Origin: an uncultured Bacilli bacterium
GTDB lineage: Bacteria; Bacillota_I; Bacilli_A; RF39; UBA660
Assembly (NCBI GenBank): GCA_947625215.1
Contig: CANQNL010000003.1
Location: 1-53,159 of the forward strand
Length of the DNA: 53,159 nucleotides
Reading direction: 5' to 3'
Under the pieces are notes generated by a model that was not told the DNA's origin, ran no database searches, and was given only the letters and a program-made list of their open reading frames with translations. Of the stretch, positions 25,939 through 46,863 are shown in pieces (the first letter of the stretch is position 1; each line of letters begins with the position of its first letter). The translations under genes were made by a program, and so were the position numbers.

Positions 25939-26065
25939 CATAATAAAAACGCACCATATTTTTACTTATAAAAAGCAGAATATAATTAAGTAAAAAATGA
26001 CTTGGTGCGCATATGGAGCCTAAGCCCCTTTAGATAAGCTTTACTTACCTAAAGGAGCCTAGGCT
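25939..26065. repeat. 127-bp double-hairpin element, copy A (downstream of P4)
   Basis: Matches 45697-45823 with 2 mismatches. Contains the arms CGCACCA..TTTTTACTTA / TAAGTAAAAA..TGGTGCG and CCTTTAG..TAAG / CTTA..CTAAAGG. Confidence 0.9.
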
Positions 26066-26079
26066 CATTTAATATAAAC

Positions 26080-27102
26080 TCAATCAGCACAATTCCATGC
26101 ATTAACCCACTCTAAATCTGAGGTAGTATTATACCCATCGCTTACTTCTGCCAATATATTGACTCTTTGATTCCAATTTCCAATATACACATTTATTGTT
26201 GGAGACGTTACTGTTACCTTTTCATTTCGACCACCAGAAAATGTATATGAGCAAATATATGTACCGTTACATTCAGCAGGGAATGTCATACTAGTAGAAC
26301 AGTCAGGAGTTACACTTGGTGATGGCAACAATAAGGTACTAACAGATTTAACTTCTGATTCTATCTCTTTTCCATCTTTTGTTGTTAGTTTAACTTGAAT
26401 ATTATGTTCCGTATTATGGGTTATTTGGTCAAAGATGTGCGTAGAACTATCTTCAACATAATCTGCTGTATCTAATTTATATTCATATTTTGTTATTTCT
26501 GCCCTTGGTTCTATTTTTGGTGTTACCGTTATTGACCTAGTTGTTGATACTGTTTCAAAATCTACTATAGGATCTGGGTCTGGTATTACCTCTCCTTTTC
26601 CTAATTGTTCAAAGGTAAAGCTTATCTTTACTTCACTACTTCCTATTTCTGGTACGCCGTTAAAATCTGGATTATATTCGATTTTTACTTTGATTATTTT
26701 TACCCCTTTACTTGATAATGTCTCTCCCTTTTCATATCCACTTGTTGTTATTTTTATAGCATCGTGATTACTTACAGTTGTCTGTTCAACATTTGTAAGT
26801 ACAGCATCCAATGTTCCTTTATTTTCGATAGTTACATCGTATTCTATGGAATCCCCTTTTTGATATAAGTTAGCTTCCATACTGGCCGTTAATTCTGACC
26901 AAACTGGATTATTTACTTCTTCGGCCATATTAGTTATATTAGTTCTTTCTACATTAGTTATTTTTATTTCCCAGTTACTTGTTATACTAGTTGTTCCATT
27001 TATATCAAGGAGTGTATTAAAAGCGGCATACCCTACAGTCATAAAGAGTAATACTCCGCATAGCGAGCATATTATTATATTTCTTTTTTTGCGTTCACTC
27101 AT
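26080..27102 (-). CDS. Family member P4: conserved N-terminus, FN3-like segment and variable Cys domain, no Hint
   Basis: MSERKKRNIIICSLCGVLLFMTVGYAAFNTLL; ends VSDGYN...NAWNCAD*. Confidence 0.85.
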   Translation of the reverse strand: MSERKKRNIIICSLCGVLLFMTVGYAAFNTLLDINGTTSITSNWEIKITNVERTNITNMAEEVNNPVWSELTASMEANLYQKGDSIEYDVTIENKGTLDAVLTNVEQTTVSNHDAIKITTSGYEKGETLSSKGVKIIKVKIEYNPDFNGVPEIGSSEVKISFTFEQLGKGEVIPDPDPIVDFETVSTTRSITVTPKIEPRAEITKYEYKLDTADYVEDSSTHIFDQITHNTEHNIQVKLTTKDGKEIESEVKSVSTLLLPSPSVTPDCSTSMTFPAECNGTYICSYTFSGGRNEKVTVTSPTINVYIGNWNQRVNILAEVSDGYNTTSDLEWVNAWNCAD

Positions 27103-27194
27103 AATTATCACTCCTAAAATTAATATAGCCAAAATATTTTATTTTATTTATCATTACATAACTAATTTATTACTTTATATTTTTTCTACTTTAT

Positions 27195-27229
27195 ATTATA
27201 ATTATGGGTCTGAGTATTGTCAATACTCA
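27195..27229 (-). promoter_or_regulatory. Consensus sigma-A promoter of P4 with a palindromic operator over the -35 box
   Basis: Minus strand TTGACA-N17-TATAAT; TGAGTATT-GTC-AATACTCA perfect 8-bp inverted repeat at 27211-27229. Confidence 0.8.
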
Positions 27230-27282
27230 AAAAGATAAAAAATTTCGTATAGTTGATAAACTGATATTCGAGGTGATTGTTA

Positions 27283-27507
27283 ATGAAAATAGTTGCCAAT
27301 AACTACAAATCAAATGAAATTATGAGAATAATAAGGGAGTGGACAGAATTATCACAAAAAGATTTTGCTAAATCAATTGGTAGAAGTCGTGATAGTATTA
27401 ATAGTATTGAAAATGGAAGAAATAGAGTCTTCTTAAATACCTTATTAGAGATCGCTAAAGAGCACGATATTACAATTACAATCGAAAAGAAAACTAAAGT
27501 TCATTAA
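27283..27507 (+). CDS. XRE-family HTH transcriptional regulator
   Basis: IREWTELSQKDFAKSIGRSRDSINSIENGR; divergent from P4. Confidence 0.88.
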   Translation: MKIVANNYKSNEIMRIIREWTELSQKDFAKSIGRSRDSINSIENGRNRVFLNTLLEIAKEHDITITIEKKTKVH

Positions 27508-27555
27508 ATATTTTCTTGCAAAAAAAATGACAATATTGTTTTGTCATTTTTTGTT

Positions 27556-29142
27556 TTAACGAACTCCGCCACCTGATGATGCTCCGCCAGCACCACCACC
27601 GCCAGAAGAAAAACTACCACCATTAGAGGCTGTATACATAGCGCTGTGGCTAAAATAATGTATACTATAACAACTATTATAATACATAATATTTTGGTCA
27701 TACTCTGCAGGATGAAAATCTTTAAACTGTTTAGCTACCTCTTCGGCAATTCCGAAAGCTTCTGCAAAAATTAAATATTCATCCCATAAATGAACCTCAA
27801 CAGCTTTCTTATCTTCAATAACTGTCATATCACAAAGAAATTGTTTTAATCCTTTTAACTTGATAAATTCATCTCTTAAACTAGCTGTAAATTTATACTG
27901 TTTTTTACCCTTACTATTGGTAATTTTAGTAATATATCCTTTATTAATTAATAATTCTTTCGAATATTCTTCAGTATCCTTAAGCCACTTATTTATTTTT
28001 TCATAATTTTTTCGGCACCATTTTTCAAACTGCTTTGATGTTAAATGTGAATTATTATCGGCTGCGCTTTGTAAATACCCCATTAATGTTGCTTCTACTT
28101 TATGATCGCAATGTTTTAAATTTGTTAAATCTAAATAATAATTATCGGCTTTATTAAAATCTAATAATCCTCCTTCGGTAGGAACTATCGTTATATTCTT
28201 ATTTTTAATCCATTTTAAAAGTAAACAACCGATAAGAGAATCCGAGCGTATTAATGATTTATATTTACCAATAAAATAAGCTTCGATTATATCTTTATCA
28301 AATGGTATATCTCTAAAATTAGGAATTTCTTTTGGGATAATAAATTCACTTTCATCATATTCTTTACGTACCAAAACTTTACCAAAAACTAATACACATA
28401 TAATAAAAACAAATATAGAAATTATAGCACCAAAACTATCATCAGTCTCTACGCCCTTTAAAGCTTTAGATGCTACATCATTATAAGTTCCTCCTTGCGT
28501 TATTGCCGGAGTAAAAGTACCATTTGGAAAACCGACTAAAACAACGACATAATCACTAGAAGTTAAACTATTATTACTTTTAAAAGTAATTTGACTATCT
28601 TCTTTCGTATTAGTACTATTAAAGCCATATGAACTATACTTAATATCTGAAAGTAAAGTACCATATTTAATATTTAAAGTAAATGATTTGGGAGCTGGAT
28701 TCATATCTTTAGGCAAAAACTGAAAATACATTATTTGATTATCACTATACTGCCAAACTAAATTTTTGATAGTATATTTAGATGTATATGTATGAAGGCC
28801 ATATTCAATTCCATAACAAAGTTCCAAACCATCTGAAGTATAATTAATTCCATTTTTATTAGCTTTTTCTTCTTTACTAGCGCTTACATCCCAATTAGGA
28901 ATTGCCGTATATTCTGTTTCATCTCTAGTAACACTAAAGTTTTCAATACTGCGGTTTTGCATATTTCCAAATGAGTGATAACTTTCAGTTCCTTCATCAG
29001 CATCTAACGACCATACTTCAGTAACATAGCCATCACCATTTTGATTAAGCTCTACTGTTATATCAACGCTATTTAAAGTATTAGCTTTAACTACTGGCAT
29101 AAAACAAAATAAACTAACAATAATTAAAATTGTTTTTTTCAT
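27556..29142 (-). CDS. DUF2207 domain membrane protein
   Basis: Signal peptide, VDITVELNQNGDGYVTE, central TM helix, LWDEYLIFAEAFGIA and a Gly-rich C-terminus. Confidence 0.85.
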   Translation of the reverse strand: MKKTILIIVSLFCFMPVVKANTLNSVDITVELNQNGDGYVTEVWSLDADEGTESYHSFGNMQNRSIENFSVTRDETEYTAIPNWDVSASKEEKANKNGINYTSDGLELCYGIEYGLHTYTSKYTIKNLVWQYSDNQIMYFQFLPKDMNPAPKSFTLNIKYGTLLSDIKYSSYGFNSTNTKEDSQITFKSNNSLTSSDYVVVLVGFPNGTFTPAITQGGTYNDVASKALKGVETDDSFGAIISIFVFIICVLVFGKVLVRKEYDESEFIIPKEIPNFRDIPFDKDIIEAYFIGKYKSLIRSDSLIGCLLLKWIKNKNITIVPTEGGLLDFNKADNYYLDLTNLKHCDHKVEATLMGYLQSAADNNSHLTSKQFEKWCRKNYEKINKWLKDTEEYSKELLINKGYITKITNSKGKKQYKFTASLRDEFIKLKGLKQFLCDMTVIEDKKAVEVHLWDEYLIFAEAFGIAEEVAKQFKDFHPAEYDQNIMYYNSCYSIHYFSHSAMYTASNGGSFSSGGGGAGGASSGGGVR

Positions 29143-29155
29143 AAGTTCACCTCTT

Positions 29156-30016
29156 TTAATCTTCTGGTTTAAAGTCAAGATTGACATATCGTATTTTAAC
29201 TACTTTATCATTTTTAAGTTCACTGACAATTTTTTCTCTTAAATGATACATTTGTCTTAAAGTTGTACTTGGGTCTAACTCTAATTCTAAATATACCTTA
29301 TAATATGAGCCATATTTTATTAACTGTGTTTTATGATCACGAATTACCTTAAACTCTTTTAAAACATCTTCAATATATTTTAAGTGTTCCTTATCAATAT
29401 CGGCTTCACCAATTAAATTCATAACGTTTTGTTTTATAATTGGAATACCTGTTTTAATAACTAATAAGGATAAAAATATACTACCAACTAAATCAGCATA
29501 TTCCAAAAATTCAAAAGTACTGGATAACTGCATTACCAAAACTACAATTATAACAACGATTGTCGAATATAAATCAGTAGTTGATTCTTTTGCCGCAGTA
29601 AGTAAAATTCCACTATTAATTTTCTCTCCATTTTTAACAAGAACTCTAATCATTACAAATTTCATAATTGAAACAACTAGTAATAAAACAATAACAATAA
29701 GGGGTGGGATTACTGGCTTTTTCATAAAACTAGATATCAATATAAATATTCCTAGGAAAATAATTACCATACCGATTAGTAAATTAGTTAAATATTCTAT
29801 TCTACCAAAACCAAATGGATGAATTTTAGTTGGTCTTTTTTTAGATATTTTAGCCCCTATAAGCGCAAAAATATCAGTTATGAAATCAACAAAGGTATGC
29901 ATCCCATCGGCAAATAATGATGATAAACTAAATATTATCCCGCCGCCGACTTTGATAATTGAAATAAGCAAATTATTTATCATACTATGAATAAGGCATC
30001 TTTTTTCTATTTTCAT
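29156..30016 (-). CDS. Cation diffusion facilitator family transporter
   Basis: SLFADGMHTFVD and HPFGFGRIEY, six TM helices. Confidence 0.9.
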   Translation of the reverse strand: MKIEKRCLIHSMINNLLISIIKVGGGIIFSLSSLFADGMHTFVDFITDIFALIGAKISKKRPTKIHPFGFGRIEYLTNLLIGMVIIFLGIFILISSFMKKPVIPPLIVIVLLLVVSIMKFVMIRVLVKNGEKINSGILLTAAKESTTDLYSTIVVIIVVLVMQLSSTFEFLEYADLVGSIFLSLLVIKTGIPIIKQNVMNLIGEADIDKEHLKYIEDVLKEFKVIRDHKTQLIKYGSYYKVYLELELDPSTTLRQMYHLREKIVSELKNDKVVKIRYVNLDFKPED

Positions 30017-30073
30017 ATTATCACCACATTTATTATAACACAGAAAAATAAAAACTAACATTGATTTGTTAGT

Positions 30074-31297
30074 TTAAATTTTACCAATAAAATATTTTTT
30101 CTTGCCACGTCTTACGACAAGCACTTCATTATCAATTGCGAGATCTTTAGTAATTATGTAATTTTCATCAGTAATTTTTTCTTCATTGATAGTTATACTT
30201 CCAGCATTTACAAATTCTCTAGCTTCTCTTTTACTTGAAGCAATTTTACCTTCAACTAACATATCAATAATATTAGTGTTTTCTTTAGCCACAAAAGTTG
30301 GAACACCATTAAAAACATTTTCAATTTCATCTTTAGTTAATTCTTTAACGTGGCCACTAAATAAAGCTTCACTCATTTTAATTGCTTTTAAAGCTTCATC
30401 AGAACCGTGTAAGAAAGTAACTACTTCTTTAGCTAAAGTTTTAGCGGCTTCTCTAAGTTCAGGTCTTTCATTATGCCTTTTTTCAATTTCTTCTATTTCT
30501 TCTTTTGATAAAAATGTAAATATTTTCAAATAACTAATAACCATTTCATCTTCACTATTTAATAAATATTGATACATTTCATAAGGTGAAGTTTTATTCT
30601 TATCAAGCCATAAAGCATTACCTTCACTTTTACCAAATTTATGTCCTTCTTTGTCGGTTACAAGCGGCATCGTAAAACCATAAACATCCTTGCCAGTAGC
30701 TTTTCTAATTAAATCAACTCCGGCAGTAATATTTCCCCATTGATCTGAACCAGCGCACTGAAGAGTGCAGTTTTTGGTTTTATATAAATGAAGAAAATCT
30801 AAAGCTTGCATAATCATATATGAAAATTCTGTATAGGTAATTCCAGTATCTAATCTTCTTTTAATTATATCTTTATCAAGCATATAATTAACACTAAAAT
30901 ATTTACCATAATCTCTTAAAAAATCGACAAAATTTATTTCTTTACACCAATCATAATTATTAACAACTTCAAAGCCAAATAGTTTCTCTACTTGTTTTTT
31001 AATAGCTTCAAAATTAGCATCAATCTCTGAAGCTGGTTTTATTTGTCTTTCTTCGGTAGGTCTTGGATCGCCAATTCTTCCAGTAGCTCCACCAACTAAT
31101 AAGATTGGATGATGTCCAGCCTTTTCAAGCCTTTTACTAATTAAAAAGCTAGATAAGTGGCCTAAATGAAGACTATCAGCAGTTGGATCAGTACCAATAT
31201 AAAATGTCATTCCACCTTCATTTAATTTTTCTTTTAAATCATCACCGGCTTCATCTTTTAATAGCCCGCGCCATTTAAGTTCTTCATATAATGTCAT
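30074..31297 (-). CDS. tyrS: Tyrosine--tRNA ligase
   Basis: YIGTDPTADSLHLGH, GSDQWGNI, KFGKSEG and a C-terminal S4 domain. Confidence 0.96.
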   Translation of the reverse strand: MTLYEELKWRGLLKDEAGDDLKEKLNEGGMTFYIGTDPTADSLHLGHLSSFLISKRLEKAGHHPILLVGGATGRIGDPRPTEERQIKPASEIDANFEAIKKQVEKLFGFEVVNNYDWCKEINFVDFLRDYGKYFSVNYMLDKDIIKRRLDTGITYTEFSYMIMQALDFLHLYKTKNCTLQCAGSDQWGNITAGVDLIRKATGKDVYGFTMPLVTDKEGHKFGKSEGNALWLDKNKTSPYEMYQYLLNSEDEMVISYLKIFTFLSKEEIEEIEKRHNERPELREAAKTLAKEVVTFLHGSDEALKAIKMSEALFSGHVKELTKDEIENVFNGVPTFVAKENTNIIDMLVEGKIASSKREAREFVNAGSITINEEKITDENYIITKDLAIDNEVLVVRRGKKKYFIGKI

Positions 31298-31299
31298 TT

Positions 31300-31953
31300 T
31301 TACTCTCCTTTCATATTAGTTACAATCTCAACTCCACTACTAGTTCCTATTCTTGTAGCACCAGCTTCAATTAACTCATTCATTTGGTCAAAAGTTTTAA
31401 TTCCTCCTGAAGCTTTAATTTCTAAAACCTCATTACGATGTTTAGCCATAATTTTAATATCTTCTAATGAAGCTCCTCTTTTACCAAAACCTGTTGATGT
31501 TTTTATAAAATTAACAAATGTTTCGTTACAAATTTCAGTCATTTTAATTATTTCTTCTTCAGTAAGTAAACTAGTTTCAACAATTACTTTTAAAGTTTTG
31601 CCATCGGCTGAATCACGTACTTCTTCGATTTCTGATTTAACATAATCATAATCTTTATCTTTTAAAGCTCCTACATTAATAACCATATCTATTTCATCTG
31701 CTCCATTTTCTACGGCATCAATAGCTTCAAAAGCTTTTGTTTTAGGTGTATTCATTCCAAGCGGAAAACCAATAACGGTACATACTCCAATGTTAGTGCC
31801 CTTAAGCAAATCTTTAGCTAAACTAACATAATATGGGTGCACGCACACTGTTTCAAAACCATATTCTATGGCCTCACTACATAATTTAGCAATATCTTTA
31901 CTAGTCGCATCCATCTTTAAATTTGTGTGATCAATATATTTTCCTATTTCCAT
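31300..31953 (-). CDS. deoC: Deoxyribose-phosphate aldolase
   Basis: IDHTNL, TVIGFPLG, DEIDMVIN, FIKTSTGF and KASGGI. Confidence 0.95.
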   Translation of the reverse strand: MEIGKYIDHTNLKMDATSKDIAKLCSEAIEYGFETVCVHPYYVSLAKDLLKGTNIGVCTVIGFPLGMNTPKTKAFEAIDAVENGADEIDMVINVGALKDKDYDYVKSEIEEVRDSADGKTLKVIVETSLLTEEEIIKMTEICNETFVNFIKTSTGFGKRGASLEDIKIMAKHRNEVLEIKASGGIKTFDQMNELIEAGATRIGTSSGVEIVTNMKGE

Positions 31954-31969
31954 AAACTACCTCCTATAA

Positions 31970-32173
31970 TAAAAAATACTATGAATATAAGGACGATATT
32001 ACTCGCGGTACCACCTTATTTCATAGAATTTCTATGCCCTTTATCAACTAACGGTGATTAACCGATTTGACTCCAAATTTGTATTTCATTAAATAACTTT
32101 GGCTAGTTTTCATCAGTCCACTAACTTTCTAATTACTAGTTAAATAACTACTTATAATTTTTCTTCATCAATT
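31970..32173 (-). promoter_or_regulatory. T-box riboswitch leader, Tyr (UAC) specifier
   Basis: Minus-strand T-box AAGGTGGTACCGCG (32004-32017); stem I AG-box-like AGAAAG..CTGATGAAA; GAAA-TAC specifier (32081-83); terminator arms CTATGAA..ATAAGG / CCTTA..TTCATAG plus T run; promoter TTGACT-N17-TATATT. Confidence 0.88.
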
Positions 32174-32220
32174 AATTAAAATATAACATATCTCATATAT
32201 TTAGTCAATATTTTTGGGGG

Positions 32221-32649
32221 TTACCATTTTTTAAAAACAACTATTTTACTTAAAATATAATTCATAACAATAACAACTACTTGAACAGATATTTTAGCAA
32301 TAGTATCATCAATATGCATTATACTATAAAGTAAATACATAAGAGCCATATCGACTAATAAAGAAAATACTCTAGCTAAAACAAAATTAAAGGCTTCTTT
32401 TATTTTTGTTTTTCCTTGTGTTTTACTTTTAAAGACAAATCTTCTATTAGTTAAATAAGCAAATGTTACAGCGCATATCCAAGATAATACATTAGCAATC
32501 TGAATATCTAAATCACTTTTATTTGGAAAACAAATATTTGCGAATAACAAATATGTAACTATACTAACAACTGTAGTTAAAAACCCAAAAATTAAATAAT
32601 TTATTATTTCTTCATATTTTATATATGTATCTTTTATTTTACTAAACAT
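32221..32649 (-). CDS. GtrA family membrane protein
   Basis: EIINYLIFGFLTTVV, ANVLSWICAV.FAY.TNRRFVF and NYILSKIVVF. Confidence 0.9.
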   Translation of the reverse strand: MFSKIKDTYIKYEEIINYLIFGFLTTVVSIVTYLLFANICFPNKSDLDIQIANVLSWICAVTFAYLTNRRFVFKSKTQGKTKIKEAFNFVLARVFSLLVDMALMYLLYSIMHIDDTIAKISVQVVVIVMNYILSKIVVFKKW

Positions 32650-32660
32650 CGTATTTCCTT

Positions 32661-33035
32661 TTATTTTACTTTACAATCTATATCATAAATATATTCGTAT
32701 TGCTTATAAGTAGCATCATATTTTAACGTTACACTACCTGTCATCTCTTCATTATTGGCAGGATTATTCAACTCCTGATCACTGGCTAAATAACCATTCT
32801 TTTTTAAATTACTAATAGATATAGAAGTGTTTTTACCTTGTAATAATGCACTGTTATCCGCTGCCCATCTTTCAGCGGCACTTTCAATCCTTTGTTTTTG
32901 CTCTTCACAAGCTTTTTCTCTTGAATTTTTAATAGCTTCCTGAATGAATGGAAAAGCTATAGCAGCAATAATGGCAAGAATAACTATTACAGCCATTAAT
33001 TCAATTAGAGTAAAACCTTTTTTCATTCTTATCAC
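32661..33035 (-). CDS. Type IV pilin-like protein (prepilin cleavage/methylation domain)
   Basis: KKG-FTLIELMAVIVILAIIAAIAFP. Confidence 0.9.
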   Translation of the reverse strand: MIRMKKGFTLIELMAVIVILAIIAAIAFPFIQEAIKNSREKACEEQKQRIESAAERWAADNSALLQGKNTSISISNLKKNGYLASDQELNNPANNEEMTGSVTLKYDATYKQYEYIYDIDCKVK

Positions 33036-33092
33036 CCTTTATTATAGTTAAATTATATCGTTGAGTCAGTATTATTGTCAAGAAAAAACTGA

Positions 33093-33434
33093 TTAATCAG
33101 TTTCTTTTATCTCTTTTAATTTTTCTTCTATTCTTTGTCCATATTCTATTGATTCATCATAAATAAATTTAAGTTCTGGGATTTGTCTAATATCTACTCT
33201 ATCTCTAAGAGCGTGACGAATAAATCCACTAGCACTTTTTAAAGCCTTTTCAGTTACTTCTCTTTTACTTTCGTCTAAAACTGTGAAGTATATCTTAGCG
33301 TAACTTAAATCATTCGTAACACTAGCATCAGTAATCGTTACAAAATCTATATCTTTATTTTTTACTTCGTTAGCAAGGATATAACTTATTTGTTCAATTA
33401 TTAAATCGGCTATTCTTTCAGATTTAATACTCAT
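33093..33434 (-). CDS. rbfA: Ribosome-binding factor A
   Basis: VTITDASVTNDLSYAKIY, ASGFIR and IPELKFIYDESIEYG. Confidence 0.95.
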   Translation of the reverse strand: MSIKSERIADLIIEQISYILANEVKNKDIDFVTITDASVTNDLSYAKIYFTVLDESKREVTEKALKSASGFIRHALRDRVDIRQIPELKFIYDESIEYGQRIEEKLKEIKETD

Positions 33435-33460
33435 ATTATCACTCTTTTCTAAAAAGGTAA

Positions 33461-33781
33461 TTACTTTTTTAAAATTTTTTGAAGTTTTTTCTGCTCAGTT
33501 CTTGCTTGATCATAATGGTATAAAGAAATTAATGAGGTTAAACCAAGACCGCTTGCGAATGGTATTTTATCTACACCTTCTAACGCAAAAGGAATGATAA
33601 GTACAGCAAGCGTTCCTGCACAAATAGCCATCATCGTTTTTTCTTTTTTTAATTTGTTTATTTTTTCACTAACAAAAGTGAAATTTATTTTTTCTTCAGC
33701 TTCTTTTTTGATTTTTTCTTCATTTTCTTCTTTTATGCTTTCTTGAAGTTTATTCCAATCAGCAACAAATTCTGCCCACAT
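33461..33781 (-). CDS. Hypothetical membrane protein
   Basis: 106 aa with two hydrophobic helices, co-oriented within the infB-rbfA operon. Confidence 0.6.
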   Translation of the reverse strand: MWAEFVADWNKLQESIKEENEEKIKKEAEEKINFTFVSEKINKLKKEKTMMAICAGTLAVLIIPFALEGVDKIPFASGLGLTSLISLYHYDQARTEQKKLQKILKK

Positions 33782-33791
33782 AATTCGCCTC

Positions 33792-34088
33792 CTATTTATG
33801 TTTTTTTATGTAAGCTTCTTTTTTGGGATACTTATCATCTAATTCTTTACGGCACATTTTATATTCACTATTAAGTGAATAAAGTTCTGGTAAAGTAAGC
33901 AATGTAATTATTCCAAAACCACTAATAAGTCCAGCATTTTCAGGACTTTGAATAGCAGTCCCAATTAAACCAGCTACTGAAGCTACTGTAAAAATAGCTG
34001 CCATATTTCTAGCACGTTTATAAACTTTCATTTTCTTACTAGTAAATATAATATCAAATGTTTCATCTTTAATATCAAAACCACCCAT
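33792..34088 (-). CDS. Hypothetical membrane protein
   Basis: 98 aa with two hydrophobic helices and a GGAGG RBS. Confidence 0.6.
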   Translation of the reverse strand: MGGFDIKDETFDIIFTSKKMKVYKRARNMAAIFTVASVAGLIGTAIQSPENAGLISGFGIITLLTLPELYSLNSEYKMCRKELDDKYPKKEAYIKKHK

Positions 34089-34102
34089 AATTTTTCCTCC
34101 TA

Positions 34103-37585: not shown

Positions 37586-37586
37586 T

Positions 37587-37838: not shown

Positions 37839-38076
37839 TTTCCCTCCTACTACATTAAAGAGTGGGAATTCCCACTCTTTGTTTTTTTCTCGAAGCACTT
37901 ATATTATAGCATATCTTTTATTTTTTTCAAAGACTTTATATCATTTTATGCCTGTTTTTATTTGTTTATACCAAAAAACTTATCTATTTTTTTCAACTTA
38001 AACTATAAGATATATCAAAATTTTTATTTTAGTTTTCATATTTTGTTAAGAAACGTGTTATAATGATAAAGGAGGA

Positions 38077-38787
38077 ATGAATATGGTAACATTCGAAAAA
38101 AAAGAAAGACTTATTAACATTATAAAAGGTATTAGTATTATAACGTTATATTTTTTAATTACTGAATATCGCACAGTTCCACTTGCGATTGCTCACATAG
38201 ATTATAATGGTACCAGTCTTTTATTTAGAGAACTTTATACAACAATGATTGAATGTATAATAATATTTATAATTTTAATAATGTTCAAAAATCAAATAAT
38301 AAACGCAATTAAAGATATAAAGAAAAATCATTTAACTTATTTTAAAAATAACTTAAAATACTATTTATTAGGTTTCTTTATAATGGCCGCTTCGAACGCT
38401 ATAATAATGGTGCTGGGGGGATCATCATCAAACAATGAAATAGCCGTTAGAAATCAGCTTGAGTTTGCTCCTATTTATTCTTTTATTGCCGCTGTTTTTT
38501 TAGCGCCTATCATTGAAGAAGGAGTATTTAGATTAGGGCTTAGAAACATTTTTAAAAACAATTTTCTCTTTATTCTTGCTTCAGGGTTAATTTTCGGTGG
38601 ACTTCATTTATCTGGAATGCTTGGTAATCCTTTACTTGGATTATATTTACTTTCATATAGTTGTTTTGGAATTACTTTCGCTTATATGCTTGTAAAAACA
38701 AACAATATATTCGTTTCAATGGGATTTCATTTTATGCATAACGGACTACTAATATCTTTACAGTTATTTGTAGCATTATTTGGATAG
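38077..38787 (+). CDS. CPBP (Abi/CAAX-like) intramembrane metalloprotease
   Basis: APIIEEGVFR, FGGLH and HFMHN motifs. Confidence 0.9.
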   Translation: MNMVTFEKKERLINIIKGISIITLYFLITEYRTVPLAIAHIDYNGTSLLFRELYTTMIECIIIFIILIMFKNQIINAIKDIKKNHLTYFKNNLKYYLLGFFIMAASNAIIMVLGGSSSNNEIAVRNQLEFAPIYSFIAAVFLAPIIEEGVFRLGLRNIFKNNFLFILASGLIFGGLHLSGMLGNPLLGLYLLSYSCFGITFAYMLVKTNNIFVSMGFHFMHNGLLISLQLFVALFG

Positions 38788-38837
38788 AAGACTTTAGTCT
38801 TTTTTCTTTTTATGATAAAATTATGATAGGTGGTAAT

Positions 38838-39725
38838 ATGGCAAACAAAAAGAAGAAAAAAAGACATATTATTTTAAAAACTATTTTATTAATCATCACT
38901 CTAGGGCTTTTTGTATATGCTTATGGAACTTATATCGAGCCTAAACAGTTAATGATAAAGGAAAATAAAATTGTCAGTAACAAAATTACCGATAATTTTG
39001 ATGGTTTTAAAATTGTCGGTATTAGTGATATTCATTATGGAAAATATTACACAATTAAAGATTTAAATAATTTAGTAACCACTATCAATAGTCTTAATCC
39101 TGATATCGTTGTCTTTACTGGCGATTTAATTGATAAAACCACTAAAATGACTACTAGTAAAGCTGATAAAATTGCTAGCGAATTAAATAAAATATCTGCA
39201 AGCAGCGGTAAATACATTATTAATGGTGAAAATGACATTAAATTCGATGAATGGGAAAATATTATTACTAATGGCGGATTTATTAATTTAAATAATAATT
39301 ACGATACCATTTATCAAAATAGTTATGACAGCATTTTAATTGCCGGATTAAGTACTAGTGCGGATAAAGAAGCTATTATCAATAAAAATCAAAAAACTAT
39401 GAATTATATCAATTCTTTTGAAAAAGGTGGGCCAATATTTAACATTTTATTGATCCACGAACCTGATTACATCGATGAACTTGAAGATAATAAATTTGAT
39501 CTAATTTTATCTGGACATTCCCATAATAGTCAAATAAATGTTCCATTTATAAGAGATTTATTATCTAGAAAAGGGGCGGTCAAATACAACCACGGACACT
39601 ATAAAATTGATACTAGTGATTTATATGTATCTAGTGGAATTGGAACGACAAACTTTAACTTTAGAATATTTAATACCCCAAGCATTGATGTATATAGATT
39701 AATTCAAGGCAAAAAATCAAAATAA
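38838..39725 (+). CDS. Metallophosphoesterase (YkuE-like)
   Basis: ISDIH, FTGD, NGEND, HEPD and SGHSH. Confidence 0.9.
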   Translation: MANKKKKKRHIILKTILLIITLGLFVYAYGTYIEPKQLMIKENKIVSNKITDNFDGFKIVGISDIHYGKYYTIKDLNNLVTTINSLNPDIVVFTGDLIDKTTKMTTSKADKIASELNKISASSGKYIINGENDIKFDEWENIITNGGFINLNNNYDTIYQNSYDSILIAGLSTSADKEAIINKNQKTMNYINSFEKGGPIFNILLIHEPDYIDELEDNKFDLILSGHSHNSQINVPFIRDLLSRKGAVKYNHGHYKIDTSDLYVSSGIGTTNFNFRIFNTPSIDVYRLIQGKKSK

Positions 39726-39740
39726 ACTTTAATTTAAATG

Positions 39741-39779
39741 ATATGAACCTCGTTTCTATGTTAAAAACGAGGTTCATAT
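39741..39779. terminator. Bidirectional terminator between convergent genes
   Basis: 15-bp perfect stem ATATGAACCTCGTTT / AAACGAGGTTCATAT. Confidence 0.75.
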
Positions 39780-39791
39780 TAGTTTATAGCT

Positions 39792-40568
39792 TTAGTTTAA
39801 TTTTTTCTGATAACTATGAGCAGTTTGTTTTTGTTTAATATCTAACTCATAAATTGCTTCGCAGATTTTATAATAATAAAAGGCTTTAATTTTATCATAA
39901 TTTCCTTCACCAATTGCCTCCTCTAAAAACTCTCTATATGGTTTATGTTCATATGCTTTAAGACAAACTGATGGAAGACCGACATTTAAAAATAGTTTAT
40001 TAATAAATCCTCTAATACTTCTTTTATTGCCATCAACAAACGGATGAACTTTAATTAAATTACATTTTAATTCGACGCATCTATCAATATATTCAAAAAT
40101 TTTACTGTAATCTTTTTTTACGTCTTCACCTAATTTAACAATATCACCAATTTCATAATCTAAATTATTAAGGCAATTTCTTATTTCATAATGAGGAATA
40201 ATATCTACAGCAATACCATTTAAATGAGCTGTAGCATTTCTAATTGTTCCGCCTACTTCTGGATAAGGTGCTTTCGAATATAATTTTCTATGAATTTCTA
40301 ATAAAGTATATACATCAAAACGATAGTTAATATCATCTGAATGTATATAATTATACATTTCTCTAAGTCCTTCTTTAGCAAATGGCTCATCATTATTTTC
40401 TAAACCACTTTCATTATCAATAAAATCATTAATCGCACTTTCTCTTATATCATCTAAATTTCTATATTCTTTATCTATTTTATAATACTCACTAATAAAG
40501 TCTTTAGATGAAATTTCATTATCATCATAAAGAATTTCTAATCTTTGTTTTTGAACATCAGCATTCAT
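39792..40568 (-). CDS. Fic family protein
   Basis: HPFVDGNKRSIR matches HPFxDGNxRxxR. Confidence 0.88.
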   Translation of the reverse strand: MNADVQKQRLEILYDDNEISSKDFISEYYKIDKEYRNLDDIRESAINDFIDNESGLENNDEPFAKEGLREMYNYIHSDDINYRFDVYTLLEIHRKLYSKAPYPEVGGTIRNATAHLNGIAVDIIPHYEIRNCLNNLDYEIGDIVKLGEDVKKDYSKIFEYIDRCVELKCNLIKVHPFVDGNKRSIRGFINKLFLNVGLPSVCLKAYEHKPYREFLEEAIGEGNYDKIKAFYYYKICEAIYELDIKQKQTAHSYQKKLN

Positions 40569-40646
40569 ATAATTTCCCCCTTTAATTCGGTGGTTATATT
40601 ATCAAAAAAATTAAAATTAGTCAAATTAAAAAGGCTTTTTAAGCCT

Positions 40647-41426
40647 TTATACTCCAACCGACATAGTTTCTGGCAAAGTCGAACCACCATCAATTACTAT
40701 TCCTTGACCGGTTATATAACTAGATTCTTCACTAGCTAAAAAAGCAGTTAAATTGCCAAGTTCTTCTATTGTTCCCAGTCTTTTCATTGGAATTCCTTGA
40801 GCAATACCATCTATAACGCCTTCTGGATTATTTGCATCAGTTTCTTTGGCTATGGCTTCAACCATCGGAGTCATAATATAACCCGGCATAATCGCATTTA
40901 CTCTAATGCCTTTTTCTACTAATTCAGCAGCTAATCCTTTAGTAAAACCAATTAATGCTGCCTTAGTTGTTGCATAAGCTACTTCTCCGCTATCAGCTAC
41001 CATTGGACCTGTTACACTCGATAAATTGATAATTGATCCTTTATCCATATAAGGTAAAGTTGCTTTAGTAACATTCCAAGTTCCTTTAATATTAACATCA
41101 AAATGGAAATCTCTAACATCATCTTCCATATCTTCAAAAGTTTCCAATTGGCATACACCGGCATTGTTAACTAAAATATCAATATTTCCATATTTATTAT
41201 ATATTTCAGTTATATATTCATTTACTTTTTCTTTATTACGAATATCGACTTTATACCCAACTACTTCATAGTTTTCACTTTGAAGTTCTTCAGTAGTATC
41301 ATTTACCTTATCATTATAATCTAAAATTGCCACTTTAGCGCCTTCTTTCAAAAACACTTTGACAATTCCTAAACCATTCCCCATCGCACCCCCAGTTACA
41401 ACTGCTACTTTATCTTTTAATTTCAT
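40647..41426 (-). CDS. ucpA: SDR oxidoreductase, UcpA-like
   Basis: TGGAMGNG, NNAG, YATTK and the C-terminal IDGGSTLPETMSVGV typical of UcpA. Confidence 0.85.
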   Translation of the reverse strand: MKLKDKVAVVTGGAMGNGLGIVKVFLKEGAKVAILDYNDKVNDTTEELQSENYEVVGYKVDIRNKEKVNEYITEIYNKYGNIDILVNNAGVCQLETFEDMEDDVRDFHFDVNIKGTWNVTKATLPYMDKGSIINLSSVTGPMVADSGEVAYATTKAALIGFTKGLAAELVEKGIRVNAIMPGYIMTPMVEAIAKETDANNPEGVIDGIAQGIPMKRLGTIEELGNLTAFLASEESSYITGQGIVIDGGSTLPETMSVGV

Positions 41427-41430
41427 ATTA

Positions 41431-42000
41431 TCACCTTTCCTTTAATACTTCTACTTCATCATCATCTTTTAGTAAAAAAGCATTGCCATCATCGGTATCT
41501 AAATGGAGTCTCAAAGAAGCATCATCTAATATTTTTAAATACACATTTTTTAATATACCCGGTTTTTCACTATTTACTCTTATACATACTTTATCAGTAT
41601 TTTCTAGGCCATATTTTTTAACATCAAGAGGAGTTAAATGGATATGACGATTAGCCATAATTAAACCTTCTTCTAAAAATACTTCTCCAAGCGGTCCAAT
41701 TAAAGTAATTGGAAGACTACCAGTAACATCACCAGAGGTTCTAATTGGTGGATTTACTTTCAACTTGAATGCATCAGTTTTTGATATTTCAATTTGATTA
41801 TAGGAACGAAAAGGTCCTAAAATACGCACATTAGGAATCTCTCCTTTTTCCGTTTTTATCGTTACTGTACTAGTACTAGCGAACTGCGTAGGTTGATCTA
41901 AATCACGCAATTTTTCTAATTTATCATTTCCAAATAATTTCATATAAGTTTCTTTAGTTAAATGAATATGCCTAGCTGAAATACCAACTTTAACTTTCAT
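41431..42000 (-). CDS. pduL: Phosphate propanoyltransferase PduL
   Basis: VGISARHIHL, RILGPFR..QIEISKTDA, NRHIH and LHLDTDDGNA. Confidence 0.92.
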   Translation of the reverse strand: MKVKVGISARHIHLTKETYMKLFGNDKLEKLRDLDQPTQFASTSTVTIKTEKGEIPNVRILGPFRSYNQIEISKTDAFKLKVNPPIRTSGDVTGSLPITLIGPLGEVFLEEGLIMANRHIHLTPLDVKKYGLENTDKVCIRVNSEKPGILKNVYLKILDDASLRLHLDTDDGNAFLLKDDDEVEVLKER

Positions 42001-42078
42001 TCTATCACCCCTTATTATTAATAATTATATCATATTTGATGGTCCTATTAAATATATTTCTATAGAAAGGATGATTGA

Positions 42079-42453
42079 ATGAACAATAATTTTGTAAACC
42101 CTAGTACTTTTCCAGGTACTCCATTATATACTGGTGGTACGGCGGTTCCCAATCAAGATACGGCTCAAAATTATCAAACAGTTATGTCTGATACTGAGTT
42201 TGAGCAATCCTATATTGAAAACATTTTAAGATTAAATCGAGGTAAACAGGTAGAAGTATATGCATCATACCCAGATAGTACTGAATGGCGTGATAAAGTT
42301 TTTAAAGGAATTATTGAGCAGTCTGGCCGTGATCATATTATTTTAAGTGATCCAGCTACCGGTAATTGGTATTTAATTTTGATGATTTATGTTAATTACA
42401 TAAAATTTAATGAACGCATTATTTCAAGTTCAGAATTTTATCCAAATAATTGA
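42079..42453 (+). CDS. gerQ: Spore coat protein GerQ
   Basis: EQSYIENILRLNRGK...FKGIIEQSGRDHIILSDPATG.WYL.LMIY. Confidence 0.9.
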   Translation: MNNNFVNPSTFPGTPLYTGGTAVPNQDTAQNYQTVMSDTEFEQSYIENILRLNRGKQVEVYASYPDSTEWRDKVFKGIIEQSGRDHIILSDPATGNWYLILMIYVNYIKFNERIISSSEFYPNN

Positions 42454-42495
42454 AATAGATAAAGATATTTGCTATAATGATAATAGGTGATTAGT

Positions 42496-43041
42496 ATGAC
42501 AATATTATTCATTGTATTAGCAAGTCTTTTTATTTTATTTATTATAATAATATTAATTGCAAATACTTATAACAATTTCCAAAATTATATTATTAGAATA
42601 AATGAAGCAGAAGCAAATATTGATTCTACTCTTAGAAACAGATTCGATTTACTTAATAAATCAATTGATATTATTAAGGCTAACACCGAAATAGAAGGCG
42701 AAATTTTTAAAAGTGTTATTAAACTTCGTTCACAAAAACTTTCTAACTTTGATTTAGACCGCGAATTATATGAAGGAATTAAAGAATTTAATAAACATAA
42801 AGAAGAACATCCTGAGCTTAGAAAAAGTGAAGTATTTACAAAAATCGATATTTCTTTAAATGAATCAGAAACAGAAATTGTCGCTTTTAGAAAATATTAT
42901 AATGATATTATTACAAACTATAATAAATTAGTTAGAAGATTTCCTTCTAATCTTATTGCTTTATGTTTCAAATTTAAAACTAAACCATATTTCGATGGTA
43001 AAAATATGGAAGATGATGATACTAAAGATTTTAAACTATAA
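42496..43041 (+). CDS. LemA family protein
   Basis: N-terminal TM helix, EAEANID..L..RFDL, PELRKSE and RKYYN....YNKLVRRFPSNLIA. Confidence 0.88.
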   Translation: MTILFIVLASLFILFIIIILIANTYNNFQNYIIRINEAEANIDSTLRNRFDLLNKSIDIIKANTEIEGEIFKSVIKLRSQKLSNFDLDRELYEGIKEFNKHKEEHPELRKSEVFTKIDISLNESETEIVAFRKYYNDIITNYNKLVRRFPSNLIALCFKFKTKPYFDGKNMEDDDTKDFKL

Positions 43042-43057
43042 AAAAAGATATACTTTG

Positions 43058-43654
43058 TTATATCTTTTTTAGTACTTTAATTTTTCCTTTAACTAAATAT
43101 TCTAATGAACTTTCATCACATTTATTAAAATCAGGATTCCAATAATTATGTGCCATTTCTAAACTCTCGTTGTAGCTAATTCCAATACTAGGAAGAAAAT
43201 CAGCACTTGATACAAACATTGTTCCCGACACTGCCACTTTAAGTAACTCTCTATCACCTGGCAAATCTTTTTTCCAAGTTATTATTTGTGGTTCATCACA
43301 AACCCAAATAGCTTCTCTACGACTAATTTTATTGGGATAATATTCTCTTCTTACTTCTTCTAAAGCATTTTCTCTCTGACAAATAAGTAGATTATGAATA
43401 TATATATCGGAATACTCAAGCAATATATCAATTGTATTATCATCTGGTTTACTTTTTCTATAATGTCTTATTATTTGATAAAATGGTAAATATTCATTAT
43501 CAAATTGTTCTAAATAAGATGTATTATTTCCTGAACTTGTATAGTTACTTAAAAAATCTTTTGAAGTATTATCAATAGTGCTACCTTCAACCCATAACTC
43601 TGGATAAATATTAAGTCTATGTAAATGATACATTGTTTTATTATTAACTTCCAT
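43058..43654 (-). CDS. Hypothetical protein, DUF2441-like
   Basis: RENALEEVRREYYPNKISRREAIWVC...AHNYW...EYLVKG pattern. Confidence 0.6.
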   Translation of the reverse strand: MEVNNKTMYHLHRLNIYPELWVEGSTIDNTSKDFLSNYTSSGNNTSYLEQFDNEYLPFYQIIRHYRKSKPDDNTIDILLEYSDIYIHNLLICQRENALEEVRREYYPNKISRREAIWVCDEPQIITWKKDLPGDRELLKVAVSGTMFVSSADFLPSIGISYNESLEMAHNYWNPDFNKCDESSLEYLVKGKIKVLKKI

Positions 43655-43746
43655 AAAAGGTCCCCCTTTTTAACCGAAAATATTTTATCATATAATCGAT
43701 AAATGTCAAACTAAAGATTATATAAAATTATATTTATTAAAAAATT

Positions 43747-43778
43747 AATCATATGAAACTATTATATTTCATATGATT
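43747..43778. terminator. Hairpin terminator downstream of the P5 / orphan Hint cassette
   Basis: 12-bp perfect stem AATCATATGAAA / TTTCATATGATT. Confidence 0.65.
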
Positions 43779-43793
43779 TTCTTTGAATATTAA

Positions 43794-43967
43794 TTATGGA
43801 TAATTATTACAAGGTCCAAACGCATAGTTATGAACTAAAAGGCCATAAAAACTTACATAATAATTTTGATTATCTTCTACTGATATATTATATACTGATA
43901 TTGTTTTAACCCTATTTACTTGTTTATTTGTTATTGTAACTTCATCATTGTCACGTTTTTTACTCAT
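43794..43967 (-). other. Orphan Hint C-terminal fragment plus tail (57-codon ORF, absent from the ORF track)
   Basis: Hand translation MSKKRDNDEVTITNKQVNRVKTISVYNISVEDNQNYYVSFYGLLVHN-YAFGPCNNYP*; same frame as P5, 54 nt after its stop. Confidence 0.85.
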
Positions 43968-44021
43968 ACCGCATCAACCAGCCCACGTCTCCTATGGATT
44001 ACCTTAACCAGATATAACTTA

Positions 44022-45023
44022 CTAGCACCAGCTCGGATTCGCCGTCACCTGATTAATACCATCCGACACAGTAGTAGTACATCCCACACCCACCTTGCAA
44101 GGGGACGATGGGGTAGTAACAGAAACCGACGTCGAATGTACTTGGCCAGATCCCACAGAAGCAGGATAACAAACATATGAACAAGTATAAGTACCATCTG
44201 CACAGCCAGTTGGAAATGTTATTGTCATTATCCGACCTGAACCAAAGCTAGTAGATGTAGATGGTAAAGCATTAGTACTAACAGGTTTCATATCTGATTC
44301 TACTACTTTGCTTCCTTTTGTTACTTTAACTTGAATATTGTGAGAAGTATTATGAGTTATTTGATCAAAGGTATATACATTATTAGTGGGGTCATCATTA
44401 CTTACGTATTCTTCAGTATCTTTTTTAAATTCATATGTCGCACCTCTAACTACTGGTGCAGTTACAGTTATTGCTCTTGTTGTTGATTCTGTCTCAAAAT
44501 CTATTGCCTCTGGCATTCCTGTTCCTTCTTGGATATAATTTAAAGTTATAGTTACTTCCGCTTTTAAATTATCAGGTTGCGTTGTGACTTCATCACTATA
44601 TGTTACTTTTACGCTTAAGGTTGCCGTACTACTAGGATTTAATTTATCCCCTTCAGCTATTCCTGAAGTTGCTATTTTTATATTTTCATTTGTGTTTTCA
44701 CTAACATCAATACTATCTAACTCAGCATTGATATTTCCTTTATTTTCAACAGTTATATCATAAGTTATAGAATCTCCAGGGCTTACTAAATTAGCTTTAA
44801 AGGTAGCAGATAGGTCATCTACTACTTGGGACTCTTCATCAGAAGCTTTTCCTACTATATCTTTACTAGTAATTCCAGTTATCTTTATATCCCAGTTACT
44901 ACTAATTGATGTTGTTCCGTTTATAGTTAAAAGTGTATTGAAAGCAGCATATCCGATAGTCATTAATAATAGTACTCCGCATAATGAATATATTATTATA
45001 TTTCTCTTTCTTTTTTCACTCAT
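44022..45023 (-). CDS. Family member P5: P2-type constant region with a different variable domain, ending at Cys
   Basis: First 255 codons are near-identical to P2; ends VSDGINQVTANPSWC*. Confidence 0.88.
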   Translation of the reverse strand: MSEKRKRNIIIYSLCGVLLLMTIGYAAFNTLLTINGTTSISSNWDIKITGITSKDIVGKASDEESQVVDDLSATFKANLVSPGDSITYDITVENKGNINAELDSIDVSENTNENIKIATSGIAEGDKLNPSSTATLSVKVTYSDEVTTQPDNLKAEVTITLNYIQEGTGMPEAIDFETESTTRAITVTAPVVRGATYEFKKDTEEYVSNDDPTNNVYTFDQITHNTSHNIQVKVTKGSKVVESDMKPVSTNALPSTSTSFGSGRIMTITFPTGCADGTYTCSYVCYPASVGSGQVHSTSVSVTTPSSPCKVGVGCTTTVSDGINQVTANPSWC

Positions 45024-45057
45024 ACATTTTTCTCCTTACCTAGTTTATTCTATAAAT

Positions 45058-45088
45058 ATTATACCCCCCCCCCCCAGGTTTTTGGCAA
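45058..45088 (-). promoter_or_regulatory. Poly-G (G12) spacer promoter of P5
   Basis: Minus strand TTGCCA-AAAACCT-G12-TATAAT; spacer 19 nt. Confidence 0.85.
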
Positions 45089-45244
45089 GTATTTTTAAGG
45101 AAAAAAATGATATTTTTCTATTTCTAAATTTAGTTTTACCTATATTTCTTATTTTATACCTTGGTATGGGTAATACAAATGCCTTATTATAATAATATCA
45201 CGCATAATGCTAATTAGTAAATATGAACAAAACCAAAATAAATT

Positions 45245-45598
45245 TTGACTGCCTTACTTCACAGTAAGGCATTTCTACTTCACCGAAACTACTGCTCTCC
45301 ATAGACCAATTTCCGATGGTCACCACCGTATTTGTATTTTTTTAGTCAAAAATTTATTGGTTATTAAACGTTTATTGTTCTAATATATTGTTTTAATCAT
45401 TCAAATAATATATTCTCAGCGCATTATAATCTCTATCGTGTATTGTAGACATTCACACTTTCTTATACTTAAATCTTTTATCTCCTTATTTTGAATTACA
45501 TCTACTACATATCTGACTACTTGGATAGTATCTATCTATTTTGATTAATTTTTCTGTTTATCATTAGGATACATCCTAAATACATAAGCTTTATACAT
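45245..45598 (-). mobile_element. Internally deleted IS200/IS605-family tnpB remnant with right end / omega-RNA region
   Basis: RBS AGGGGG followed by MYKAYVFRMYPNDKQK (TnpB N-terminal HTH), then frameshifted YPSSQICSRC, KDLSIRK and HDRDYNA (Zn ribbon / RuvC-III). The 3' tail ACGGTGGTGACCATCGG..TGGAGA..TCGGTGAAGTAGAAA leads to a 9-bp hairpin TGCCTTACT/AGTAAGGCA and terminal TCAA. Left end not defined. Confidence 0.82.
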
Positions 45599-45696
45599 AA
45601 TTATCCCCCTATCTTTGTTAATTCAAGTGTAATATATCTTTGGACATTTGTTCAATAGATTTTTAATATTTTCTTTAAAAGTGCACTTCCCTTATA

Positions 45697-45823
45697 CATA
45701 ATAAAAACGCACCATATTTTTACTTATAAAAAGCAGAATATAATTAAGTAAAAAATGACTTGGTGCGTATATGGAGCCTAAGCCCCTTTAGATAAGCTTT
45801 ACTTACCTAAAGGAGCCTGGGCT
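45697..45823. repeat. 127-bp double-hairpin element, copy B (downstream of P6)
   Basis: Matches 25939-26065 with 2 mismatches; abuts the P6 stop codon. Confidence 0.9.
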
Positions 45824-46863
45824 TAGTAATACAAACACGGTGTAGATGAGTTAGATGAACAAGAATTAGTTACTGTATTATATCCATCACTAACACTTGT
45901 TGAAGTAATAGTACTACCACCAGTCATATAAGTATCGCATGAACATAAGCCAGCATTACATACAGAAGAACAATTACTACAACCAGAAACACTCAAACTA
46001 CAGGTTAATCCATTTGAACATCCTTCAGGAAAACTAGCCTGGCCACCAACAGGTACTCTAGAAGCTGAACACCCAGTTGTATTTTCAAGTAATAAAGTAC
46101 TAACAGGTTTAACTTCTGATTCTATCTCTTTTCCATCTTTTGTTGTTAGTTTAACTTGAATATTATGTTCCGTATTATGCGTTATTTGGTCAAAGATGTG
46201 CGTAGAACTATCTTCAACATAATCTGCTGTATCTAATTTATATTCATATTTTGTTATTTCTGCCCTTGGTTCTATTTTTGGTGTTACCGTTATTGACCTA
46301 GTTGTTGATACTGTTTCAAAATCTACTATAGGATCTGGGTCTGGTATTACCTCTCCTTTTCCTAATTGTTCAAAGGTAAAGCTTATCTTTACTTCACTAC
46401 TTCCTATTTCTGGTACGCCGTTAAAATCTGGATTATATTCGATTTTTACTTTGATTATTTTTACCCCTTTACTTGATAATGTCTCTCCCTTTTCATATCC
46501 ACTTGTTGTTATTTTTATAGCATCGTGATTACTTACAGTTGTCTGTTCAACATTTGTAAGTACAGCATCCAATGTTCCTTTATTTTCGATAGTTACATCG
46601 TATTCTATGGAATCCCCTTTTTGATATAAGTTAGCTTCCATACTGGCCGTTAATTCTGACCAAACTGGATTATTTACTTCTTCGGCCATATTAGTTATAT
46701 TAGTTCTTTCTACATTAGTTATTTTTATTTCCCAGTTACTTGTTATACTAGTTGTTCCATTTATATCAAGGAGTGTATTAAAAGCGGCATACCCTACAGT
46801 CATAAAGAGTAATACTCCGCATAGCTAGCATATTATTATATTTCTTCTTTTGCGTTCACTCAT
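45823..46863 (-). pseudogene. Family member P6: P4-type constant region with an in-frame TAG at codon 13 and a Cys/Ser-rich variable tip
   Basis: ATG at 46863 with the family RBS. Codon 13 is TAG (46825-27) where P4 has TCG; the remainder is open to PCLYY*. Confidence 0.85.

Follow-up and report, generated by a model that had tools for sequence, protein, structure and literature searches.

Near-identical fronts, diverged tips and a common 3' element in two surface-protein genes of an uncultured gut Bacilli bacterium: a probable recombination mosaic

How can two genes of one chromosome be almost identical over their first 773 bp, then differ nearly as much as shuffled sequences do, and then be almost identical once more from the stop codon onwards? 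The question is raised by P4 and P6, two minus-strand genes for secreted surface proteins on contig CANQNL010000003.1 of an uncultured Bacilli bacterium (assembly GCA_947625215.1), of which we analysed a stretch of 53,159 nucleotides, hereafter the window. In both genes a constant block, or front, is followed by a C-terminal part, the tip, that is different in each, and the tip is followed by an element of 127 bp. The explanation that we prefer, and to which we give a probability of roughly 70%, is that P4 and P6 are a mosaic made by ordinary homology-driven recombination within a small subfamily of genes with a shared structured 3' untranslated region (UTR). The two genes are built as follows.

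26080-27102, minus strand: P4, a paralogue of the secreted family.
26330-27102, minus strand: constant block of P4 (signal peptide, domain 1 and domain 2; residues 1-257), delimited by its 768/773 match to P6.
26083-26329, minus strand: tip of P4, the third beta-sandwich domain (model residues 263-334) and a short tail ending NCAD, from alignment and model.
26066-26082, minus strand: stop codon TGA of P4 and an in-frame remnant, GTT TAT ATT AAA TG(A), read from the sequence.
26016-26066, minus strand: predicted hairpin 1 behind P4, a 24-bp stem with four G·U pairs and a 3-nt loop that begins inside the ancestral stop codon, from RNA folding.
25939-26012, minus strand: predicted hairpin 2 behind P4, a stem GCGCACCA...UGGUGCG and then UUUUUAUUAUG, terminator-like with a U-tract, from RNA folding.
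45823-46863, minus strand: P6, a paralogue of the secreted family.
46091-46863, minus strand: constant block of P6, from alignment and count against P4.
45826-46090, minus strand: tip of P6, a Cys-rich version of the third domain ending CLYY, from alignments.
45697-45823, minus strand: element behind P6, with predicted hairpin 1 at about 45774-45823 and a terminator-like hairpin 2 at 45707-45768, abutting the stop codon TAA, from alignment and folding.

The fronts, 26330-27102 and 46091-46863, are identical at 768 of 773 bases, both by pairwise alignment and by direct count, and the five differences lie at gene positions 17, 38, 684, 757 and 768. Position 17 gives K6R, position 38 turns S13 into a TAG codon in P6 and position 757 gives S253P, whereas positions 684 (codon 228) and 768 (codon 256) are synonymous changes; the 645 bp of gene positions 39-683 are free of any difference. 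The homology begins at the ATG, and the regions upstream of it are unrelated. Behind the tips, 25939-26065 and 45697-45823 are identical at 125 of 127 positions, with differences at positions 5 and 56. An earlier note on this DNA had reported about five differences in the fronts and two in the elements, and both counts hold. P4 and P6 share 99% identity in domain 1, in comparison to 45-50% with the other paralogues in the window and 55% with the protein P0038.

Between front and element there are 264 nt in P4 and 267 nt in P6, which are 49% identical when aligned, against 44.5 +/- 3.8% in shuffled controls. The encoded tips are 26% identical as proteins, and they differ by several indels, in length, and at all kinds of bases. 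To call them unrelated, as the earlier note did, is nevertheless to go too far: they can be aligned with the matching segments of P1, P2 and P5 around the invariant residues F-P, C, G, C and V-S-D-G-x-N, and the tips of P1, P2, P4, P5 and P6 are diverged homologues of one beta-sandwich domain of about 80 residues. The AlphaFold model of P4 (mean pLDDT, the predicted local distance difference test score, of 87) has three beta-sandwich domains, at residues 46-166, 179-255 and 263-334, and resembles tandem arrays of FN3 or immunoglobulin domains in the PDB. The breakpoint at the 5' side of the tips is found at residue 257 or just after it, and since the model ends domain 2 at residue 255 and starts the tip at residue 263, it falls in the predicted linker between these two domains. 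The same breakpoint is met in the public run X6, where the last 31 nt of the constant block lead into another tip start, LSPPSIAKSG, that is absent from the window.

The tips also have a history of their own. The P6 tip is 66-72% identical to that of the protein P0006, which was the sole match in the search with the P6 tip and has a domain 1 of the P5 type (84%); P0009 is a more distant member of the same Cys-rich class, and for neither P0006 nor P0009 did a search bring up the contig that encodes it. Because a P6-type tip thus sits on a P5-type backbone at 66-72%, the tip classes existed before the fronts of P4 and P6 came to be nearly identical. The tips of P1 and P0003, both placed before a Hint domain, are 78% identical. 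The identities of the segments are incongruent, and P4 and P6 are therefore a recombination mosaic with a breakpoint at a domain boundary, and not the outcome of fast point mutation.

A mosaic of two repeats could be produced by an assembler as well, but such an artefact was rejected: independent Logan contigs from the source sample cross every junction.

26061-26503: element, P4 tip and constant block, in a 443-nt contig of X2.
45749-46028: element and P6 tip, in a 280-nt contig of X1.
46004-46411: P6 tip and constant block, in a 408-nt contig of X1.
Flank on the trpS side and element: in a 287-nt contig of X1.
Flank on the tnpB side and element: in a 151-nt contig of X3.

Moreover, the P4 and P6 repeats are in direct orientation and separated by single-copy genes, and both are crossed, so only one assembly path is consistent.

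The element starts within the stop codon (TAC TAA/GCC in P6, AAA TGA/GCC in P4), and translation of P4 ends five codons before the TGA next to it. The remnant between these two stops is a homologue of the terminal codons of P6 (..TTG TAT TAC TAA) and of a variant from the run X5 (..GTA TAT TAC TAA), so that the 3' module fades into the final codons and has no abrupt start. It is strongly structured: the element folds at -58 kcal/mol (z = -8), and a 36-nt core of its hairpin occurs exactly twice in the window and in none of 100 shuffles. Hairpin 1 is a continuous stem without bulges, predicted at -38.7 kcal/mol (z -9.1) in the sense RNA versus -27.3 kcal/mol in the antisense RNA, a difference of 11 kcal/mol, and its G·U pairs exist in the sense RNA only. 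A sense-strand stem-loop and a U-tract right after the stop codon are what is expected of an intrinsic terminator or a structured 3' UTR, and we infer from the folds that the element is a 3' UTR that acts as RNA on the sense strand. Rfam has no match over it; the sole hit, a U7 match below threshold (E 0.15), falls at 45625-45686, in another part of the scanned stretch.

Further copies of the element, which had been suggested as a check, were found in Logan contigs, and each of them follows a family-type tip. Within the source sample the element is bounded distally by three different sequences, that of the trpS side, that of the tnpB side and one more (..TAACCTTTTTTTTAAATGTGTAAATTAATG), and proximally by the tips of P4 and P6 and by another tip, which ends ..SGFCGSNAERK and has its TGA directly at the element. 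The 30-nt flanks of this third copy are not present in the window. In the run X5, from another sample, a tip that ends ..DGYNTVNNSCKSASGFCGSDVYY and a stop codon lead into 111 bases that match the element without a difference; the species is the same there, covered at 2-3x and diverged by roughly 0-3% over the longer well-matching contigs. All four contexts recovered, three from the source sample and one from the other, hence have a family-type tip in front, and all copies stop at exactly the same base. Words of the element have a depth of 3-9x in contigs taken singly, which rises to about 11x at the overlap of three contigs. The exact stem pattern of hairpin 1 has no match in 185,579 species genomes and the Joint Genome Institute (JGI) metagenomes, collections that are without the window itself, and blastn with the element gave no match in a plasmid collection, a phage collection or 51 family loci of other species. 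The element is thus low in copy number and constantly placed after genes of the family, and the subfamily of P4 and P6 has at least three genes in the source sample. A 393-nt contig of X2 is 92% identical over 26729-27042 and then continues into a different signal peptide (..IVSLCAVLLL); judged by this sequence it may be the front of a third member. Contigs from the source sample also carry a variant patch with seven to eight changes in the linker between domains 1 and 2, at 26504-26596, in sequence that is otherwise identical to P4 and P6.

The most reasonable course of events would then be the following. P4 and P6 would belong to a small subfamily, within a dispersed family of secreted three-domain surface proteins, whose members all end in one 3' UTR that starts at the stop codon; in it hairpin 1 would protect the 3' end of the messenger RNA and hairpin 2 would stop transcription. 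The third domain exists as old and highly diverged classes, and recombination between paralogues, or with DNA of related strains, would have made the mosaic, presumably by gene conversion of the RecA type. One edge would be the gene start that is conserved in the family and the other the linker before the tip, where homology collapses, and the shared 3' UTR would be the next stretch in which it resumes. Two routes lead to this result: the front of 773 bp could have been copied between two older paralogues, or the whole gene could have been duplicated and the tip replaced afterwards. The rates of difference, 0.65% in the front (five differences) and 1.6% in the element (two differences), rest on too few changes to separate the routes. 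The earlier note saw the tip as a cassette swapped between two homologous anchors; the sharp-edged recombination mosaic in this proposal stands, whereas the tip as the moved piece is not favoured over copying of the front, because the element is found behind at least three genes, each with a tip of its own. The open reading frames scanned, most of those of at least 100 amino acids in the window, yielded neither a recombinase nor a reverse transcriptase.

Several points weigh against this mosaic by ordinary recombination. The earlier note suggested a look for tips identical to those of P4 and P6 on other fronts; for P6 a tip of the same class was met in P0006, but the search with domain 2 and the P4 tip found no donor of the latter within its length range, and none of the 22 proteins that a profile of five tips from the window retrieved among 1.84 billion representatives is close to the P4 tip. 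The RNA role of the element is a prediction, and a simple terminator scan did not call hairpin 2, whose predicted loop of 18 nt is outside the limit of 3-8 nt in that scan. The census of copies was made from short Logan contigs at 3-7x, and the metagenome may hold several strains.

The same profile shows that the domain is not confined to tips: it is also repeated inside pilin-like and large surface proteins, and in type IV pilin-like proteins (P0108, P0112, P0111, P0115 and P0116) it alternates with FN3 modules. No Pfam family matched the tip. In several proteins with the domain, a conserved C-terminal tail, ..DLSYDN(T/A)NTG(M/L)DCxDAQCALDAIKKMLE, comes after it.

P4 and P6 also differ in their promoters and in an early TAG of P6.

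27195-27223, minus strand: promoter of P4, TTGACA-17 nt-TATAAT, 12/12 in the promoter scan, with no poly-G tract and unlike the family promoter.
46898-46928, minus strand: family-type promoter of P6, TTGTCA, a 19-nt spacer with G12 (46904-46915) and TATAAT, from upstream comparison.
46825-46827, minus strand: in-frame TAG at codon 13 of P6 (TCG in P4), from sequence comparison.

The family promoter design precedes P1, P2, P5, P6 and P7, and its spacer carries G9 to G17. P4 is the sole examined family gene in the window that has a perfect consensus promoter of the sigma-70 type and no poly-G; P3 is likewise without the family poly-G promoter. The TAG in P6 is confirmed by P6-specific source-sample contigs of X3 (328 nt) and X4 (330 nt), which match 46570-46897 and 46570-46899 with 0 differences. 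The next start, and the only one left, is the internal Met21 (ATG 46803), from which translation would miss the initial 20 residues of the signal peptide, so that P6, to judge from its reading frame, probably has no function at present. It retains the complete family promoter and a ribosome-binding site.

These features lead to the strongest of the other explanations, programmed tip switching or antigenic variation, in which P4 would be the expression site, P6, with its nonsense codon and poly-G promoter, and the third copy would be donors, the end of domain 2 and the element would be the homology anchors, and exchange within a population would be frequent. The consensus promoter of P4 and the confirmed TAG of P6 fit such a division of labour, and so do the occurrence of one element after at least three to four different tips and the different tip start at the same breakpoint in another sample (X6). 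If true, this would be pilE/pilS-like variation in a Gram-positive commensal, acting on a whole folded domain. We consider it unlikely nonetheless. The short Logan contigs, at 3-7x, contain no contig or read that joins the flank of the P4 locus to a tip other than that of P4; neither a recombinase nor an initiating structure came to light, and with three copies seen the repertoire would be very small. P6, with its promoter and ribosome-binding site in place, looks like a recently broken gene and not like a silent cassette, and the G·U pairs of the hairpin indicate a role in RNA and not in DNA. That dedicated anchors let P4 take up new C-terminal domains time and again, with co-resident strains and paralogues that are broken or phase-off as the donors, is by our analysis equally doubtful.

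Considerably less probable is that the 127-bp element is an end of the IS200/IS605 type or a miniature inverted-repeat transposable element (MITE), with copies that are alike because of transposition and not because of the ancestry of the gene family. The ends of IS200/IS605 insertion sequences (IS) carry subterminal hairpins, every copy of the element terminates at an identical base, and 75 bp beyond the P6 copy starts a tnpB remnant:

45545-45622, minus strand: N-terminal remnant of tnpB (MYKAYVFRMYPNDKQKN), PF12323 positions 1-18, E = 0.0011, also marked by its word depth.

This was why the earlier note offered the IS end as an alternative, which we now hold to be very improbable. Word depth is 30-69x over the tnpB piece (45461-45582), about 10-fold above that of the element, and the high depth stops before the element is reached. 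Of an IS end or a MITE derived from it one would expect many dispersed copies that do not depend on any one host gene, as well as continuity with the transposon and a second, similar hairpin end; neither was seen in the window, the Logan contigs or the collections searched. The far end of the remnant also has a hairpin (45250-45271, TGCCTTAC..GTAAGGCA), which by inspection has no evident likeness to those of the element. The P4 copy adjoins the trpS terminator with no IS beside it, the third copy has other flanks again, also without IS sequence, and all four contexts begin from the stop codon of a family-type tip. The empty searches with the hairpin-1 stem and with the element, and G·U pairs that only the sense RNA has, point the same way. 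The tnpB remnant is a separate, degenerate multi-copy IS that starts just after the P6 element, and most likely this IS was inserted beside a terminator. Its depth of 30-69x in a sample where the genome has 3-7x means that related copies are numerous in the community or in the genome, and positions 12804-13025 of locus L004 of Firmicutes bacterium CAG:822 match its 3' part at 73% identity.

Least credible of the three is a recent duplication of the whole gene followed by accelerated point mutation of the tip alone, for instance through diversifying selection or targeted hypermutation: the motif order (FP.xC, C, VSDGYN) is kept and the lengths are similar, but the tip that was said to evolve far faster than its flanks is at random level in DNA identity where these differ by less than 2% (0.6-1.6%), several indels separate the two versions, the P6 tip class on the other backbone of P0006 predates the split of P4 and P6, and neither a reverse transcriptase nor a template repeat was found in the window.

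Three further candidates were rejected. A tip of the polymorphic toxin or CDI (contact-dependent inhibition)/Rhs type, which would be a toxin domain with a cognate immunity gene behind it, does not agree with a beta-sandwich that has no Pfam match and is also an internal repeat, nor with what follows the tip, a terminator-like hairpin and, at P4, the convergent trpS. The lack of a reverse transcriptase or template repeat in the window, with tips that differ in length and at all kinds of bases, speaks against a diversity-generating retroelement, whose substitutions would be adenine-specific and leave the length as it is, and an integron cassette, whose attC site would have extrahelical bases, is contradicted by the absence of a tyrosine recombinase among the scanned reading frames and by the unbulged, continuous stem of hairpin 1.

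The setting of P4 and P6 is chromosomal DNA of low GC content (about 29%). Its housekeeping genes in the window include trpS, tyrS, infB, nusA, divIC, yabG and gerQ, and the host is a spore-former. The public runs that contain the window are rabbit-gut metagenomes, and related proteins stem from metagenome-assembled genomes (MAGs) of uncultured Bacilli and from CAG:822. The secreted paralogues are dispersed between the housekeeping genes.

9542-11074: P1, a paralogue of the secreted family with a Hint domain at the end.
11275-12795: P2, a paralogue of the secreted family with a Hint domain at the end.
16944-18143: P3, a paralogue of the secreted family.
44022-45023, minus strand: P5, a paralogue of the secreted family.
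51112-52509, minus strand: P7, a paralogue of the secreted family.

From P1 to P7 the N-terminus is conserved, with weak matches to DUF11, DUF7507 and camelysin-like proteins. Other genomes have paralogues of the family that are 78-97% identical at their 5' ends, with later modules that are divergent or re-arranged. In the MAG E40__bin28 the family promoter and the first ~300 nt are present at 91-97% identity on seven contigs (L016, L021, L031, L032 and L034-L036), and six of the seven stop at the end of the shared block or within about 200 nt of it, for which reason short-read assemblies probably under-count and truncate the family. P5 terminates at the Cys where the Hint domain starts in P1 and P2, and it therefore looks, from the sequence, like a Hint-bearing gene that was cut short. 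A remnant of the C-terminus of a Hint domain (43794-43973, minus strand; ..VYNISVEDNQNYYVSFYGLLVHN) lies just 3' of its stop codon, and this remnant is 81% identical in DNA to 53075-53148 at the end of the window.

What P4 and P6 offer is a clean and delimited case of how a phase-variable surface-protein family diversifies in unstudied gut Bacilli, in which entire C-terminal domains are shuffled at a linker and the second boundary is formed by a structured 3' UTR that the genes have in common. It bears on the surface variation of gut commensals in their host, and the constant block, the tip and the 127-bp element give a handle for surveys of the tip repertoire with long reads.

Contingency families of bacterial surface proteins, such as opa and pil of Neisseria, form mosaic paralogues through ectopic gene conversion, and recombination mosaics of this sort are already well known, so that P4 and P6 are one more instance. 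They share with the Neisseria mosaics a dispersed family, switchable promoters, near-identical blocks beside saturated ones and edges at module boundaries; they differ in that what varies is an entire C-terminal beta-sandwich domain, and in the host, an uncultured gut Bacilli bacterium. The ends of IS200/IS605 and their miniature derivatives are similar to the element in being hairpin-rich DNA, and one copy does lie beside a tnpB remnant, but the element is low-copy, lacks a partner end, is always found behind a gene of the family and does not form part of the adjoining multi-copy IS. A counterpart for the 3' part may be the stem-loops that stabilise messenger RNA from its 3' end, the positive retroregulators known from the cry genes of Bacillus thuringiensis. 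Here too a long and stable sense-strand stem-loop comes right after the stop codon, beside or within a terminator, although there are two separate hairpins and their function is predicted.

For the arrangement as a whole, pilE of Neisseria with its conserved 3' Sma/Cla repeat of 66 bp (PMC4023411) is a further comparison. The element of P4 and P6 looks like an RNA hairpin with a terminator and not like a protein-binding DNA repeat such as Sma/Cla, and the promoterless truncated cassettes, the G-quadruplex (G4) motif and any sign of unidirectional transfer are missing here. What the pilE/pilS system (PMC4023411) has in common with P4 and P6 is a conserved non-coding element directly 3' of each variable copy, and perhaps also one copy that is strongly expressed beside another that is non-functional, as P4, to judge by its promoter, and P6, to judge by its TAG, may be.

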